Of a DNA stretch of 32,382 nt, positions 3,295 through 26,125 are shown one piece after another. The DNA is from a virus: the IMG/VR virus record IMGVR_UViG_3300026882_000104; one strand, written 5' to 3'. The stretch's first letter is position 1; every line of letters starts with the position of its first letter. The notes under the pieces are model-generated. The model worked only from the letters and a program-made list of their open reading frames with translations. It was not told the origin of the DNA and ran no database searches. The translations under genes and the position numbers were made by a program.

Positions 3295-4548
3295 TCATTT
3301 CAAAGAATAGTATATTATCACTTTCCCTTGAGAATTTACTTTCTGCTCCACTCTCAGCTCATCTTCCATGGACTCCAGAACTTGATCGAGGTCTTTCACA
3401 AGCCAGTTGGTAGAGCGAAGGAGCTCTCTTTTTGTAGCCTTTCCTCCATTCCTCTTTATGGCTGCCCTCACCTTTTCTTTGTAATCAGAGTAGTCTACAT
3501 CCCTCTTTACGTCTGCTTTTCTCAGGTTCCACTGCTCGATGAATTTATCAAAGTTCTGCTCATAAACCTTCATTGATTCGATTGCGGTATCGGCATCACT
3601 CTCACGCACAAGGACAACCCGGCGGTTCAAACTCGACGAAATAAGATTGTGTGAGTTAGATACCGCAGATATCACAGCTAGTTTTATTGTGTTCACCCCT
3701 TCATTCGCCAGATAACTGTACTTCATTGATTTTTCATCCTTCTTGTACTGGTTTATAGCTTCATTATCACACCTGTTCCACCATTCACTAAGCTTCTTTG
3801 AAGCACCAGGTTCATAGGCAACATTCCACGTCTGCATACTCGTGTTTTTCCACACATCGTAGAACTTCTTTGCGAACTCATTTATTTCATTCAATCTCAT
3901 CTGCTTGTTTATGAGTGGGTTCAGGTCGTCATCTGTGTGGTTAGGAGACTTTATGTTCTCTATAACACAGTAAAGAAACCTGTTTCCAAGACCCTGTTGG
4001 AAGAAAGAAGGCTTTAACACTTTATAAACTTCTGGGGTTGTAGCCGAAATCAGGCTCACATATGTCCCGCTCACCTTCAGAACTCCGAATTTGTTGGTCG
4101 TCCTCTTCAATTCCTGACCATCGTAGATTCTTGAGAGGAACTCGTAGGCGGTTTCAAGGTACCCGCTCCCTTGAGCCATTTTTATGAGCCACGTGAACTC
4201 ATCTGATACAAGGAGACCTGTGGTGTACTGTGAAAAGTGTTGCTGGATGAGACCTTCAACTGAAAAAGTATCGGGAAGCAGGAAATCGTAACCACTCATT
4301 TCACCCAGCTTGTGCATTATTGGTATCACAACTTCCTTCACGGGAAGGGTTTTCACAGCTATCTGACTTGGGCCGACAGCCATAGTAAACAGGTTCAGGT
4401 TTGCATCTCCCATCTTCGTTACACACTGAATCCCCCTGAGTATCGTAGAAAATGAAGCAAGACTCACTGTTTCTGCCCACAGTTCATCCGCTCTCGGTAT
4501 CCTTTCGAGAATATACTCTCTCAACTCTCCAACTATTCCTGTGAACAA
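3295..4548 (-). CDS. DUF3987/YfjI-like AAA+ ATPase (putative helicase) with C-terminal winged-helix-like tail
   Basis: Degenerate Walker A AVGPSQIAVKT, Walker B LVSDEF, SLISATTP and Arg-finger-like GLGNRFL. TTG start follows GGGGTGA. Confidence 0.7.
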   Translation of the reverse strand: MFTGIVGELREYILERIPRADELWAETVSLASFSTILRGIQCVTKMGDANLNLFTMAVGPSQIAVKTLPVKEVVIPIMHKLGEMSGYDFLLPDTFSVEGLIQQHFSQYTTGLLVSDEFTWLIKMAQGSGYLETAYEFLSRIYDGQELKRTTNKFGVLKVSGTYVSLISATTPEVYKVLKPSFFQQGLGNRFLYCVIENIKSPNHTDDDLNPLINKQMRLNEINEFAKKFYDVWKNTSMQTWNVAYEPGASKKLSEWWNRCDNEAINQYKKDEKSMKYSYLANEGVNTIKLAVISAVSNSHNLISSSLNRRVVLVRESDADTAIESMKVYEQNFDKFIEQWNLRKADVKRDVDYSDYKEKVRAAIKRNGGKATKRELLRSTNWLVKDLDQVLESMEDELRVEQKVNSQGKVIIYYSLK

Positions 4549-4595: not shown

Positions 4596-5387
4596 TCATA
4601 TGTATCCGTCCCCCCAGCCGGTAGCCCTGGTCGTCTTCCTCCCCGGACGACCAGCTACCCAATATCTTGGAAACTCCGCTATACCGTGACCCTTAGGAAG
4701 CGCTCTCATCAGCTTTTTATTCGAGTAGAAATCTGAAAGACACGCCACTTCTATAGCCCTGTACACATCGACTCCCCACCAGCACCTTGTCGCATTATCC
4801 ATTACCCACACATCCATGTTCTCCACATCCTTCTCCCTATTGCCTTCTATAAACGAATTAACATCATCCTTTATGTTGCGCTTTTTATACCCTTCCCCAC
4901 CTTTCAGAACCGCCTCAACCGACCTTAAATCTTCAGATAGACCGCTTATGTTCACCTTCCCATTCTTTATCCTCTTGGAAAGAAGGGAAATAACTTCATT
5001 CATATACGCCTTCCTCACATTGATAACGTTGCACAGCGTGAGCATCTTCTGACTCAGTTTTGGAAGGGAATTCGCCGTCATCACCACGAAATTATCAACC
5101 TTCATTGTGTCAATTGCATCCAAAGACTCGAATTTATCTACATCATCGAACAAATACAGAACAGGGAAGAGCGCTTTATGACCCACAGCTTCAACCACAC
5201 CTTCAACCACTTCCTTCGGAGTATTCGGATTCACTTCAACAACGCTGTAACCACGTGACTTTGCTACTTCATAAACTGAATACGTCTTCCCAGAACCCGT
5301 TGGCCCCACCACTATAACAGGTCTCTTGGTGTTCAGAAGAAGGTTTATTTTATCCTTCAACTCAAATGGAGAGACTAGCGAAACCAT
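4596..5387 (-). CDS. AAA+ ATPase, replication factor C large-subunit-like (short)
   Basis: GPTGSGKT, GYSVVEVNP, Walker B LFDDVD and VMTAN. Lies in the same operon as an RFC small subunit and a PCNA-like gene. Confidence 0.65.
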   Translation of the reverse strand: MVSLVSPFELKDKINLLLNTKRPVIVVGPTGSGKTYSVYEVAKSRGYSVVEVNPNTPKEVVEGVVEAVGHKALFPVLYLFDDVDKFESLDAIDTMKVDNFVVMTANSLPKLSQKMLTLCNVINVRKAYMNEVISLLSKRIKNGKVNISGLSEDLRSVEAVLKGGEGYKKRNIKDDVNSFIEGNREKDVENMDVWVMDNATRCWWGVDVYRAIEVACLSDFYSNKKLMRALPKGHGIAEFPRYWVAGRPGRKTTRATGWGDGYI

Positions 5388-17542: not shown

Positions 17543-17555
17543 GGGTTTTTCACCT

Positions 17556-17627
17556 TGGCACGTTTAGCCTACCCCTTGTGGGGTAGTTGCCCGCCCCACA
17601 CCACGAGGAGGTAGTGCCATGTGGGGC
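17556..17627 (-). ncRNA. HDV-like ribozyme fold 2 (canonical)
   Basis: P1 GCCCCAC/GTGGGGC, P2 TGGCAC/GTGCCA, P3 ACC/GGT, L3 TCCTCGT, P1.1 CC/GG, GCAA, P4 CTACCCC/GGGGTAG, J4/2 GCTAA. G1 immediately follows a U6 tract. Confidence 0.9.
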
Positions 17628-22217: not shown

Positions 22218-22292
22218 TAGACGCGCTTAGCCTGCCTCGAAAGAGGCAGTTGCCCGCCCCACACCTCTTGGAGGTGGCGCCTGTTGTGGGGC
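22218..22292 (-). ncRNA. HDV-like ribozyme fold 3
   Basis: P1 GCCCCAC/GTGGGGC, P2 AGGCGC/GCGTCT, P3 ACC/GGT, L3 TCCAAGA, GG, GCAA, P4 CTGCCTC/GAGGCAG, J4/2 GCTAA. Follows a U tract. Confidence 0.88.
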
Positions 22293-22324: not shown

Positions 22325-22693
22325 TTACTCGTCGCTTTCAAAGAACTCGCTTAAAATTTTGGTTAAACTATTCATCGCCTTCCTGCGTTTCAAAAGCTGT
22401 GAGAATGGGTTGGGTGGCCCACCCCAACGCCTCTCTGCTTCCCTGATTAGTTCCTCTGCTTCACATCCCACGTTGGTTATCAACGTCTTTATGCCCCATG
22501 CGTATTCACCGCTACCATCGTCGAAAGTTGCAATAACGACCTTAGCTGTTTTTGACCGCGCTAGATAGACGTAAATATCGCCCCCACCCCGACAAGGGTA
22601 TGAAAAAGCGGGGTCGAGTTGGGACACACTGAGGGCTTTTTTGCCCGAAGTCCCACCGATGTTGCTATGGGTTTGGGTTTTGGGGTTTGACAT
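22325..22693 (-). CDS. Hypothetical protein, paralog family A copy 2
   Basis: GGTGA SD. FSY..RGGGDIYVY...TFDDGSGEY...NPF. Confidence 0.7.
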   Translation of the reverse strand: MSNPKTQTHSNIGGTSGKKALSVSQLDPAFSYPCRGGGDIYVYLARSKTAKVVIATFDDGSGEYAWGIKTLITNVGCEAEELIREAERRWGGPPNPFSQLLKRRKAMNSLTKILSEFFESDE

Positions 22694-22707: not shown

Positions 22708-22782
22708 GTTGGCGCTGTTAGCCTGTGCCAAAGGCACAGTTGCCCACCCCACGCCTAGAGGAGGCCGCGCCAATTGTGGGGT
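22708..22782 (-). ncRNA. HDV-like ribozyme fold 4, abutting the 3' end of a tRNA-like RNA
   Basis: P1 ACCCCAC/GTGGGGT, P2 TTGGCGC/GCGCCAA, P3 GCC/GGC, L3 TCCTCTA, GG, GCAA, P4 CTGTGCC/GGCACAG, J4/2 GCTAA. Confidence 0.88.
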
Positions 22783-22989
22783 GCGCCCACGCGGGGATTC
22801 GAACCCCGCAGGCACCTACCACTCATAAGAGTGGCCCACACTTACTGGACACACGCACATCCACCCATACACACACCGCTTGGGACTCGGACGGTGTGTG
22901 CTGGTGTGGAGACGTGTGTTACGCAAGCGTGGTAAGGTGCTCTCCCGATGCCCTAGGGTATCAGTCCCTTTCCCTTCGGGCGTGGGCAC
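22783..22989 (-). ncRNA. tRNA-like structured RNA (T-arm plus acceptor-like stem, large branched insert); not a canonical tRNA
   Basis: T-arm CGGGG-TTCGAAT-CCCCG followed by CGTGGGC-G, which pairs with GCCCACG at 22987-22981. Internal helices GCACCT/AGGTGC, CCACGCTTGC/GTAAGTGTGG and GCACACACCG/CGGTGTGTGT. Confidence 0.6.
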
Positions 22990-22991
22990 TT

Positions 22992-23404
22992 GAGCCAGAC
23001 CAGACCCCCTCCACCACGAGAAGGTTCCGACCCTGGAGGGGAAAAAAGATTTAGAGTTTGTTGATAATGTTTTCGAGTCTATTCATAGCTGATACATCGT
23101 TGAGCAACTCGTCAAAGGGATTCTTTGAACTAGGCACTGTACGACTATACGTATCCCGCGCTTTCTCGACGAGCTCACGAAAAGCGACGGGATAATCACC
23201 AGTTGTAACAGCCCACGTATACTCGACAAGCTCATCCGTTACTAGCGTTATTAGTAACGCGGTTGTATATTTTGTTTTGGCTGCATAGATGTTTATTTCG
23301 TCTCCTTCCTGAGTAGTGAAGGAGAAAACTGGACGAAGCTTGGGTATGCTAAAGTTTTTCGTGGACATATTTCTCACCTATGGTCGGATTCGCTAGTCTG
23401 GCTC
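22992..23404 (-). ncRNA. Split/circularly permuted HDV-like fold whose halves flank ORF 23051-23377
   Basis: Upstream half 23404-23382: GAGCCAGAC-TA-GCGAA-TCCGACC. Downstream half 23041-22992: CCCCTCC-AG-GGTCGGA-ACC-TTCTCGT-GGT-GGAGGGG-GTCTG-GTCTGGCTC. P2 (7 bp) and P4 (9 bp) between halves are perfectly complementary. Confidence 0.65.
23051..23368 (-). CDS. Hypothetical protein, paralog family A copy 3
   Basis: ATG 23368 after GGTGA (track starts at GTG 23377). FSFTT.EGDEINIY...VEY...NPF. Confidence 0.7.
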   Translation of the reverse strand: MSTKNFSIPKLRPVFSFTTQEGDEINIYAAKTKYTTALLITLVTDELVEYTWAVTTGDYPVAFRELVEKARDTYSRTVPSSKNPFDELLNDVSAMNRLENIINKL

Positions 23405-23605
23405 TATCCCGGCTTGGGTAGAAAAAGCTGATGTGGGGGTCACCTCTTCCTTCTGGAAAGAGTCAACCCCCACTTCCCAGGTCGAAGCCCGTATTTACGG
23501 GCTTCACGTAGGACTTCGCGCAGTTCTCTATCCATTCTCAACACCAGCTTGGGTTTTACCCAAGCCTTCGGGGAGCCATTGACGGAGCTTTTCCACGCCC
23601 CCAGT

Positions 23606-23666
23606 CAGCCGACTCCAAAAAAAAGGGTGGAGTTTCGCCCCCCGGCACAGGGGCTCATCAGGGCTG
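23606..23666 (-). ncRNA. Type I hammerhead ribozyme
   Basis: Stem I CAGCC/GGCTG, core CTGATGA, stem II GCCCC/GGGGC, GAAA, stem III CTCC/GGAG, cleavage triplet GTC (predicted cut after 23611). Confidence 0.85.
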
Positions 23667-24089
23667 TTACGCTAGACTATTGACGTAGTCGAGAACTTGA
23701 CGCAACTCATTTTCAGAAAGGGTCTTAAGTCTCTCCAGGATTTGCTTGACCAATGGATTGGTAACATTACGAACTGCCGGATTGACGTGAGAATGATAGA
23801 AGTGGCTGGCTACTGAAGCGAAGTTTCTACCATCGGTGCTCCACTTACAAATGGAGCACACGTAAAGAGTTACAGTAATGCCGTAGTCTTTGATGGTCAC
23901 TTTTTGAACTGTGAACGCTTTGTTTTTGATGTCATCACTAATATGCGTGCCGTAAAAGTGTCTTACTACGACTTCTTTGTAATTGTTGATGTAGCTGCAT
24001 GCCGAACACTTATACGTGTAGTTTGGTGCCTCGCCCTGCATCTCTACCCATATTTTGGGCAGAGACGTTAATTCAGGTATTTCGGACAT
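23667..24089 (-). CDS. Protein with two C2H2-like zinc fingers
   Basis: CSAC..HFYGTH and CSIC..HFYHSH. ATG 24089 after GGTGA. Confidence 0.75.
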   Translation of the reverse strand: MSEIPELTSLPKIWVEMQGEAPNYTYKCSACSYINNYKEVVVRHFYGTHISDDIKNKAFTVQKVTIKDYGITVTLYVCSICKWSTDGRNFASVASHFYHSHVNPAVRNVTNPLVKQILERLKTLSENELRQVLDYVNSLA

Positions 24090-24102: not shown

Positions 24103-24205
24103 GGCCGCTGGGGGCTCTGTGGAGCCCCGTTAGTGCTAGTTAGAGCTCTTCTAATTGGCTCTTCCTTCCGCCCCCCGCCACGTGGAGGCGACCACCATGG
24201 GGGGC
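24103..24205 (-). ncRNA. HDV-like ribozyme fold 5 (variant with extra hairpin before P2 3' strand)
   Basis: P1 GCCCCCC/GGGGGGC, P3 GCC/GGC, L3 TCCACGT, GG, imperfect P4, CTAA, inserted hairpin GGGGCTC/GAGCCCC, weak P2 TGGT/GCCA. Confidence 0.6.
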
Positions 24206-25424: not shown

Positions 25425-25580
25425 ATGGTTCGTGTAAGTGTGGTTCTTCCCGACGAACTCGATGAAAGGTTCAGAAAGGAAATCATAAGAAGGAAAGGAT
25501 ATAAGAAGGGGTATTACTCGGAGAGTGTGAAGGAGGCGATTGAACTTTGGCTCAACCATGGGTTAAGCCAAAAACAGTAG
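25425..25580 (+). CDS. Ribbon-helix-helix (CopG-like) regulator, 51 aa (missed by the ORF track)
   Basis: Manual translation MVRVSVVLPDELDERFRKEIIRRKGYKKGYYSESVKEAIELWLNHGLSQKQ. Confidence 0.8.
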   Translation: MVRVSVVLPDELDERFRKEIIRRKGYKKGYYSESVKEAIELWLNHGLSQKQ

Positions 25581-26125
25581 AGAACATCCTGACTGAGAGG
25601 GATGTAGTGAGACTGCTGAAGGCGTGCAGGAATAAGAGGGAAGCCTTCGTTGTAGGGGGTCTCGTATTCACCGGGATGAGGGTTTCAGAGTTCATCCACA
25701 TGGATAGGTCGTGGATAAGAGATGGGGCGATTCACATACCGAGGTCCAAGAAGTGTTCGTGTTCAGAATGTGCCAAAAAAGGGGGTATTTGGACACCCAA
25801 GACCCCTAGCAGTATAAGGGTTATTCCCATAGTCCCCGAGATAGAAAGTCTGTTTTCCGAGTTCTTCTCTGAATACAATTCAGTGATGGAACTCATCCCG
25901 AATAGGCAGAAAGCCCACTACATCATAAGGGATGTTGGAAAAAGGATAAACAAGAAGGTCTTTCCCCACTCACTCAGAGGAACCTTTGCTACAATACTTG
26001 CCAAAAAAGGTTTTAATCCCTTTGAGATAAAGGATGTTATGGGCTGGAGCAAGATAGATGTTGCCATGTCGTATATCAACATGGTGGGTGCGTATGTTAA
26101 GGAGGCGTTCAGGCAGAAATGGTAG
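25547..26125 (+). CDS. Tyrosine recombinase/integrase (catalytic domain only)
   Basis: FTGMRVSE (R), TPKT (K), FPHSLRGTFAT (HxxR), MGWS and MSYI (Y). Confidence 0.92.
   Translation: MAQPWVKPKTVENILTERDVVRLLKACRNKREAFVVGGLVFTGMRVSEFIHMDRSWIRDGAIHIPRSKKCSCSECAKKGGIWTPKTPSSIRVIPIVPEIESLFSEFFSEYNSVMELIPNRQKAHYIIRDVGKRINKKVFPHSLRGTFATILAKKGFNPFEIKDVMGWSKIDVAMSYINMVGAYVKEAFRQKW

Follow-up and report, generated by a model that had tools for sequence, protein, structure and literature searches.

On the minus strand of the window (the whole 32,382-nt stretch of viral DNA analyzed here), positions 22987-22783 hold a structured RNA element of about 205 nt. By comparative analysis, we show that the structure of this element is conserved, that it includes a tRNA-type acceptor/T minihelix and that the element is invariably coupled to an abutting predicted ribozyme fold. 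An earlier sequence-only reading had claimed a tRNA mimic with its 3' end cut by an HDV-like ribozyme, and the claim fits the structure that we recover from relatives: the minihelix is invariant, the ribozyme covaries and the coupling of the two is constant. Structural conservation, on which that claim depended, extends over 22 full-length variants. We propose, giving the idea about an even chance, that the element is a tRNA-derived, tRNA-scaffolded non-coding RNA that would be excised from a ribozyme-punctuated viral transcript.

The window has a G+C content of ~45% and encodes a STIV B116-like protein, a MoxR-type AAA ATPase, a tyrosine integrase (25547-26125, 2.6 kb from the tRNA-like element), an RFC-like clamp loader, an XPF/ERCC4 nuclease, a Cas4-like nuclease and a Dam methylase. 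The genes surrounding the element are mostly on the minus strand, on which the element itself is also read. Hot-spring-type metagenomes of JGI and ENA were the sole source of near-identical contigs and relatives; searches of IMG/VR (by protein and three DNA patterns) and of a phage collection (by DNA and two proteins) returned no relatives. Archaeal-type traits include the STIV B116-like protein, XPF and the GGUGA Shine-Dalgarno sequence, and we take the window to belong to a virus or mobile element, as yet uncultured, whose host is a thermophilic archaeon. Related metagenome loci are designated by L-numbers (L022, L083 and so on).

Architecture and conservation of the element and its ribozyme fold

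The tRNA-like element, the ribozyme fold behind it and the start of the downstream gene consist of the following parts, listed in the direction of reading.

22988-22991, minus strand: variable linker, with 5-6 nt inserted in some relatives
22981-22987, minus strand: acceptor-like helix, 5' strand GCCCACG, invariant in 19 variants, forming 7/7 pairs with 22791-22785
22941-22980, minus strand: D-like region, with a G/C-tract arm (candidate pairing) and a loop with an invariant CUGA
22935-22940, minus strand: anticodon-stem-like helix, 5' strand GCACCU, invariant, partner 22817-22812
22836-22932, minus strand: long hairpin of 97 nt, three stacked helices, conserved apical loop UCCGAGUCCCA
22818-22835, minus strand: short hairpin CCACUC-UUAU-GAGUGG, with a variable loop (UUAU, CUUU, CUCUG)
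22812-22817, minus strand: anticodon-stem-like helix, 3' strand AGGUGC, A to G in L022 with a U-G wobble kept
22792-22808, minus strand: T-arm CGGGG-UUCGAAU-CCCCG (CGGGG 22808-22804, loop 22803-22797, CCCCG 22796-22792)
22785-22791, minus strand: acceptor-like helix, 3' strand CGUGGGC, pairing with 22987-22981
22783-22784, minus strand: G73-like discriminator (22784) and C74-like base (22783), predicted cut at 22783/22782
22709-22782, minus strand: predicted HDV-like self-cleaving ribozyme, from Rfam and covariation in 52 variants
22782-22776 with 22752-22746, minus strand: ribozyme P1
22773-22767 with 22715-22709, minus strand: ribozyme P2
22765-22763 with 22755-22753, minus strand: ribozyme P3
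22745-22744, minus strand: ribozyme P1.1, 3' strand GG
22739-22733 with 22729-22723, minus strand: ribozyme P4
22721, minus strand: putative catalytic C, the conserved C of GGCUAA
22691-22705, minus strand: Shine-Dalgarno GGUGAG (22705-22700) and ATG (22693-22691) that starts the downstream 122-aa ORF

Much of the architecture described in the sequence-only reading is present in this alignment. The perfect T-arm is there, as is the acceptor-like helix GCCCACG/CGTGGGC with G73, and the anticodon region does hold a three-way junction, in which a 6-bp anticodon-like stem leads into the short hairpin and the long, covarying one, with no 7-nt loop. The reading had also noted the absence of a G3-U70 pair, and position 3-70 is indeed C-G. 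Two of its helices did not survive comparison with relatives. The closure said to extend to the cleavage site (G22989-C22783, U22988-G22784) is unconserved, U22988 being A in many relatives, and the suggested D-like helix CCCGA/UCGGG is paired in 87.5% of cells, the remaining 12.5% being broken with no compensatory change. RNAalifold favours GCCC/GGGY plus AGGG/CCCU in the D-like region, pairings that are never broken and vary by wobble pairs only; the D-like arm is without covariation support.

A profile search with nhmmer over all fetched metagenome loci found 48 sense copies, one per contig, among which 22 are distinct full-length variants. Directly behind every 3'-complete copy stands the ribozyme sequence ACCCCAC. 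The T-loop 11-mer alone is not significant (0.54 chance matches expected at up to 1 mismatch); the whole element, with its 48 copies, 22 distinct full-length variants and 9 two-sided hairpin pairs, is significantly more than chance. The minimum-free-energy fold of the element has z = -7.9 versus shuffles. Mean pairwise identity is 91-98% in the RNA module versus 75-78% in the flanking ORFs on both sides, and we conclude from the alignments that purifying selection acts at the RNA level on the 5' acceptor strand as well as on the entire body.

Variation is distributed unevenly over the element. The acceptor, T-stem and anticodon-like stem are base-invariant among variants, save for the A to G wobble of L022, and invariance is highest in the 3' 63 nt, which run from the basal hairpin strand to the acceptor. 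In the long hairpin, 9 pairs are changed on both sides and 99-100% of cells are paired; for instance, its basal helix in L083 keeps 10/10 bp despite 6 exchanged pairs. Within the T-loop, U55 is replaced by C in at least 5 variants and G57 by A in 2, and G73 is A in L039. Because U55, a universally conserved base of the T-loop in tRNAs, is C in several variants, tertiary-fold constraints appear less strict here than in real tRNAs. In the most divergent relative, L009, the module is missing at the matching junction, where two paralogous genes are adjacent with no ribozyme between them, and the module would therefore be dispensable for gene expression in general.

Two loci carry a 401-nt insertion within the long hairpin (L022:3864-4264 and L078:6677-7077). 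It lies between CCA and GUA of an internal loop, between the equivalents of 22846 and 22845, and leaves the scaffold intact. The insertion matches no Rfam family, contains no ORF, occurs nowhere else among the loci and is bordered by no bulge-helix-bulge (BHB) motif. As the tRNA shell is kept in L022 and L078, the anticodon-side domain evidently accepts large additions. The apical loop of the same hairpin (22891-22880, minus strand; UCCGAGUCCCAAG) opens with a T-loop-like heptamer, UUCGAGU in L022. It has CCCAAGC in common with two upstream sites (~23411-23420 and 23555) and UCCGA in common with the P2 strand of the split HDV-like fold described below.

The claimed abutting HDV-like ribozyme starts at 22782 and its fold is backed by covariation. 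Rfam models RF02682 and RF00094 match 22782/4-22708 on the minus strand at 34.6 and 34.9 bits, both under the family cut-offs (44 bits for RF02682, for which the family copies score 34.6-42.5). Over 52 aligned variants, the nested double pseudoknot is paired in 94.7% of cells, and 15/26 pairs covary, with 171 cells changed on both sides and with P1, P1.1, P2, P3 and P4 all represented. This covariation is reached by 0 of 500 shuffles, and no slid register comes close. Because the double pseudoknot covaries in 52 variants, we consider the fold a genuine HDV-like ribozyme by comparative criteria. The P1/P1.1 register has P1 start at A22782 and the cut is therefore predicted after C22783, which puts the predicted 3' end of the upstream RNA 1 nt past the discriminator. 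Self-cleavage 5' of P1 should leave a 2',3'-cyclic phosphate and a 5'-OH. Ribozyme copies linked to the tRNA-like element have A1-U37, versus the G1-U37 wobble in classical HDV ribozymes. The acceptor helix GCCCACG/CGUGGGC is nearly identical to ribozyme P1 (22782-22776/22752-22746; GCCCCAC/GUGGGG in sister copies), so that alternative pairings are possible and a shared origin is hinted at.

Relation to tRNA genes, other known RNAs and integration sites

The element has the acceptor (7 bp plus discriminator) and the T-arm (5 bp, 7-nt UUCRANU loop) of a canonical tRNA. It lacks a canonical anticodon arm with a 7-nt loop and a stable anticodon, and no D-arm (3-4 bp, loop with GG) can be drawn in it. 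With the E threshold relaxed to 10, Rfam still gives no tRNA match to the element. The sole ARAGORN call is a “tRNA-???” that spans the 3' 76 nt and has a 2-nt anticodon; the program finds no tRNA in the locus with introns allowed and no tmRNA in its tmRNA mode. A dedicated scan for strict BHB motifs, defined by 3-nt bulges flanking a 4-bp helix, found 0 in the element; a relaxed candidate at the hairpin base is contradicted by L083, and a site at 37/38 fails by hand check. Together, ARAGORN, Rfam and the BHB scan uphold the earlier view that there is no canonical BHB and that the element is neither a standard intron-containing tRNA nor a tmRNA. We also considered RNase P RNA, SRP RNA, Y RNA and C/D and H/ACA guides and rejected them, since none had an Rfam match and the box motifs were unconvincing. 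The related contigs contain no canonical tRNA gene in 546 kb, which would make the tRNA-like element the only tRNA-related gene of these elements.

Could the element nevertheless be a tRNA gene that still functions despite heavy disruption, with splicing of non-canonical introns yielding a decoding tRNA? Thermoproteota tRNAs can have several introns. In addition, we deleted every possible single segment in turn, and on some of the 12,838 artificial derivatives ARAGORN, with introns allowed in the anticodon loop, gave weak tRNA calls (Gly-ACC, Ile, His and Leu-AAG) that count in favour of a spliced tRNA. The only recurrent solution, a Leu-AAG with a long variable arm, was rejected since its required helix is broken by a GG-to-AA change in relatives, and Gly-ACC with a 112-nt intron after position 38 was rejected for having no BHB. 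The would-be anticodon ACC changes to AUC jointly with its pairing partner (C-G to U-A); as triplet and partner change together, it appears to act as a helix position. The absence of a strict BHB, the failure of the relaxed candidate in relatives, the impossible D-arm and the missing Rfam tRNA match also argue against splicing, as does the putative intron itself, which is the part with the strongest conservation and covariation. We regard a spliced, decoding tRNA as extremely improbable.

The sequence-only reading had named a relic attP as an alternative, in which a piece of a host tRNA gene is kept as the relic or active integration site of the tyrosine integrase at 25547-26125. The short distance to this recombinase and the invariance of the 3' 63 nt are in keeping with such an origin, and L022 initially appeared to share just these 63 nt. 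However, the 5' part of the element is present in L022 600 nt upstream, and the difference is an insertion; the complete element plus 401-nt insertion in L022 and L078 is therefore evidence against a recombination junction. We also searched the exact 23-nt T-arm plus acceptor strand against one genome for each of 185,579 prokaryote species, a set outside which the true host possibly lies. The sole match was a bacterial Sphaerobacter tRNA-Thr, with no archaeal tRNA or integrated copy in these genomes. The covarying hairpin and the 5' acceptor strand are conserved as RNA structure, and the ribozyme abuts the 3' end in every 3'-complete copy. With selection apparent at the RNA level and a host-tRNA search that gave only a bacterial tRNA-Thr, the attP idea is unsupported, and we hold it to be very unlikely.

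Candidate ribozymes elsewhere on the minus strand

A window-wide scan found three further HDV-like matches, all on the minus strand and all intergenic. On the 5' side of the tRNA-like element, the leader forms half of an HDV-like fold whose other half lies beyond a gene, a feature that the sequence-only reading does not mention.

16408-16481, minus strand: further HDV-like ribozyme, Rfam match
17555-17627, minus strand: further HDV-like ribozyme, Rfam match
22218-22292, minus strand: further HDV-like ribozyme, Rfam match
22992-23041, minus strand: 5' leader, the 5' half of the split HDV-like fold, directly after a U-tract (23047-23042); P1 CCCCUCC/GGAGGGG, P2 strand GGUCGGA, P3 ACC/GGU, P4 strand GUCUGGCUC
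23404-23382, minus strand: partner half of the split fold, GAGCCAGAC-UA-GCGAA-UCCGACC, ahead of the upstream ORF

A pattern made from the ribozyme copies of the window retrieved 99 metagenome loci, and the window plus 115 related loci contain 147 ribozyme matches, representing 84 distinct variants. The layout of nearly all copies is a U-tract, the ribozyme, a GGUGA Shine-Dalgarno sequence and a start codon. From this survey, we conclude that the predicted ribozyme belongs to a large undescribed HDV-like family that chiefly punctuates protein-coding operons. L076, a 57.6-kb contig from another habitat, has the ribozyme type twice (3854-3925 and 4732-4803), each time after a G+C-rich hairpin and just ahead of a Shine-Dalgarno sequence and ATG; the gene-punctuating arrangement therefore extends beyond the hot-spring virus group. 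At 24148-24205 (minus strand) lies a fifth HDV-like match, which is weaker (RF02682, 23.5 bits). The window also has three paralogous small ORFs (15987-16394, 22325-22693 and 23051-23368, minus strand), which are ~33% identical and have no Pfam family, and a ribozyme directly precedes two of the three. Their family has only 17 clusters in a set of 5.8 billion proteins, none of them named.

The halves of the split fold are separated by the ORF at 23368-23051, and their P2 (7 bp) and P4 (9 bp) strands are complementary across this gene. Both halves are kept in relatives, 400 or 700-755 nt apart and with one or two ORFs between them, and no other segment of the region is as conserved as the 5' half (97.8% pairwise identity). 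The split fold shows no compensatory changes but does show a few uncompensated mismatches, and its P1.1 is weak. An active fold would give the tRNA-like RNA a 5'-OH end at C23041. Farther upstream, a hammerhead-like core (CUGAUGAG...CGAAAC, 23606-23678, minus strand) has a U8 tract in one loop and sits just past the stop codon of the gene ending at 23667, with Rfam scores of only 19-20 bits.

Proposed processing and comparison with known systems

In the scheme that we propose for an excised RNA, the element would be transcribed within a minus-strand multi-gene transcript, and the HDV-like ribozyme would fold and cut between C22783 and A22782, as its covariation and the known chemistry of the family suggest. 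The resulting 3' end would read ...CGUGGGC-G73-C74, carry a 2',3'-cyclic phosphate and lie at the end of a 7-bp acceptor that stacks on a 5-bp T-stem. The 5' end may be made by host RNase P ahead of G22987, or by the split HDV-like fold with its P1 from C23041, and the product would be a compact RNA of ~205 nt (or 259 nt). The tRNA “top half” might provide fast folding, nuclease resistance and recognition by tRNA enzymes, which would presumably see the minihelix. The anticodon arm would be swapped for a cargo domain, made up of the three-way junction and the 97-nt covarying hairpin with its conserved loop, and the element would act as a tRNA scaffold bearing a functional hairpin and not as a decoder. 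A stable non-coding RNA would then accumulate, with the hairpin domain probably its functional part. In favour of cargo, L022 and L078 take the 401-nt insertion in the long hairpin with the scaffold whole. Against an excised RNA, a Pfam search found no phosphoesterase, RNA ligase or CCA-adding enzyme encoded in the window. A 2',3'-cyclic phosphate blocks CCA addition.

The main rival, which we consider unlikely and which the data fit equally well, is a purely cis-acting processing or insulating module, that is, an RNase P site plus a rigid, fast-folding spacer with no function in trans. Placed behind the split-ribozyme half and ahead of the ribozyme, which have similar P1s, such a module would allow both ribozymes to fold correctly and the flanking mRNAs to gain defined ends, comparable to tRNA punctuation in mitochondria. 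The module is indeed flanked by two HDV-type elements with nearly alike P1s (CCCCUCC/GGAGGGG and CCCCAC/GUGGGG), and its acceptor helix GCCCACG/CGUGGGC resembles both. Nearly all other ribozyme copies directly follow a U-tract, and the module looks inserted between a U-tract plus half-ribozyme and a ribozyme. The tolerated 401-nt insertion also suits a spacer, as does the lack of a trans target within the window, where antisense matches of at least 9 nt to the loops occur at chance frequency. However, the apical loop and hairpin sequence are conserved far more than a spacer requires, and the module is absent from L009 at the matching gene junction. A different outcome, which we think quite unlikely, is that two ribozyme cuts excise the tRNA-like RNA and that RtcB joins it into a circular RNA on a tRNA scaffold. 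Either the split HDV-like fold (cutting at 23042/23041) or the hammerhead-like core near 23611 would provide the upstream cut, and the HDV-like ribozyme the downstream one at 22783/22782, giving 5'-OH and 2',3'-cyclic phosphate ends. The archaeal tRNA ligase RtcB joins precisely such ends. As the predicted ends fit archaeal RtcB, circular RNA production by these viruses becomes directly testable. If true, the product would be a covalently closed, heat- and exonuclease-resistant viral RNA, a natural counterpart of engineered ribozyme-flanked circular-RNA systems and possibly one of a series of circularized segments in a ribozyme-punctuated operon.

The closest known arrangement to the proposed tRNA-scaffolded RNA is that of theta ribozymes, minimal HDV-like ribozymes beside the tRNAs of gut Caudoviricetes (Kienbeck et al. 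2024, PMC10879173). These authors state that the pairing of tRNA and ribozyme is, to date, confined to Caudoviricetes of the mammalian gut (PMC10879173). In both cases, an HDV-type self-cleaving ribozyme (predicted in the window) lies directly 3' of a viral tRNA-shaped RNA, no CCA is encoded and the 3' end is proposed to form without host 3' nucleases. Unlike in the theta case, the RNA in front of the ribozyme is no decodable tRNA, the host is of archaeal type, the cut is predicted 1 nt past the discriminator, and no CCA-adding enzyme or RNA ligase is encoded nearby. The ribozyme also differs in being a full, P4-bearing HDV-like form, from a family that otherwise punctuates protein genes. A tRNA-shaped RNA with a 3' HDV-type ribozyme is thus hitherto published only for genuine tRNAs of gut phages. 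New here are the non-decoding, cargo-bearing partner RNA, the different host domain and the operon-punctuating ribozyme family, and our literature search found nothing on HDV-like ribozymes in archaeal viruses. The principle is thereby extended to an archaeal-type hot-spring virus and to a non-decoding tRNA-shaped RNA. Given this case, ribozyme cleavage 3' of a tRNA-type minihelix may be a general viral route to defined RNA ends without host 3' nucleases.

Several other systems share parts of this design. Archaeal intron-containing or disrupted tRNA genes with BHB introns (PMC4033280, PMC3978253) offer an archaeal context, an acceptor plus T-arm and a large interruption of the anticodon region. 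In contrast to these genes, the element has no BHB, anticodon loop or D-arm, and its interruption is conserved and covarying rather than variable. The bacterial Y-RNA-like YrlA, reportedly described with a tRNA-like module by Chen et al. in 2014, likewise combines a tRNA-mimicking domain with a long functional helix in one non-coding RNA, whereas YrlA ends in a Ro-binding stem and not in an acceptor; the element has no Y-RNA match in Rfam, and we saw no Ro/Rsr gene. In another example, the tRNA-like small RNAs of mascRNA/MALAT1 and MEN-beta, which Wilusz et al. are said to have described in 2008, parallel the proposed use of a non-decoding tRNA-like fold inside a long transcript as a processing signal that is released as a small RNA. 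However, mascRNA is eukaryotic, receives its 3' end from RNase Z, is ~60 nt long and has no cargo hairpin, and the Rfam model RF01684 scores the element at 20.8 bits against a cut-off of 42.5. In a final example, the recombinant tRNA scaffolds attributed to Ponchon and Dardel are reportedly a laboratory design in which a foreign structured RNA takes the place of the anticodon arm while the acceptor, T and D parts stay, so that the shell serves processing and stability much as we propose here. The element differs from these scaffolds in being natural and virus-encoded, with a ribozyme predicted to set its 3' end, and it is a well-defined candidate, with strong conservation, for what would be the first tRNA-scaffolded non-coding RNA in an archaeal virus.
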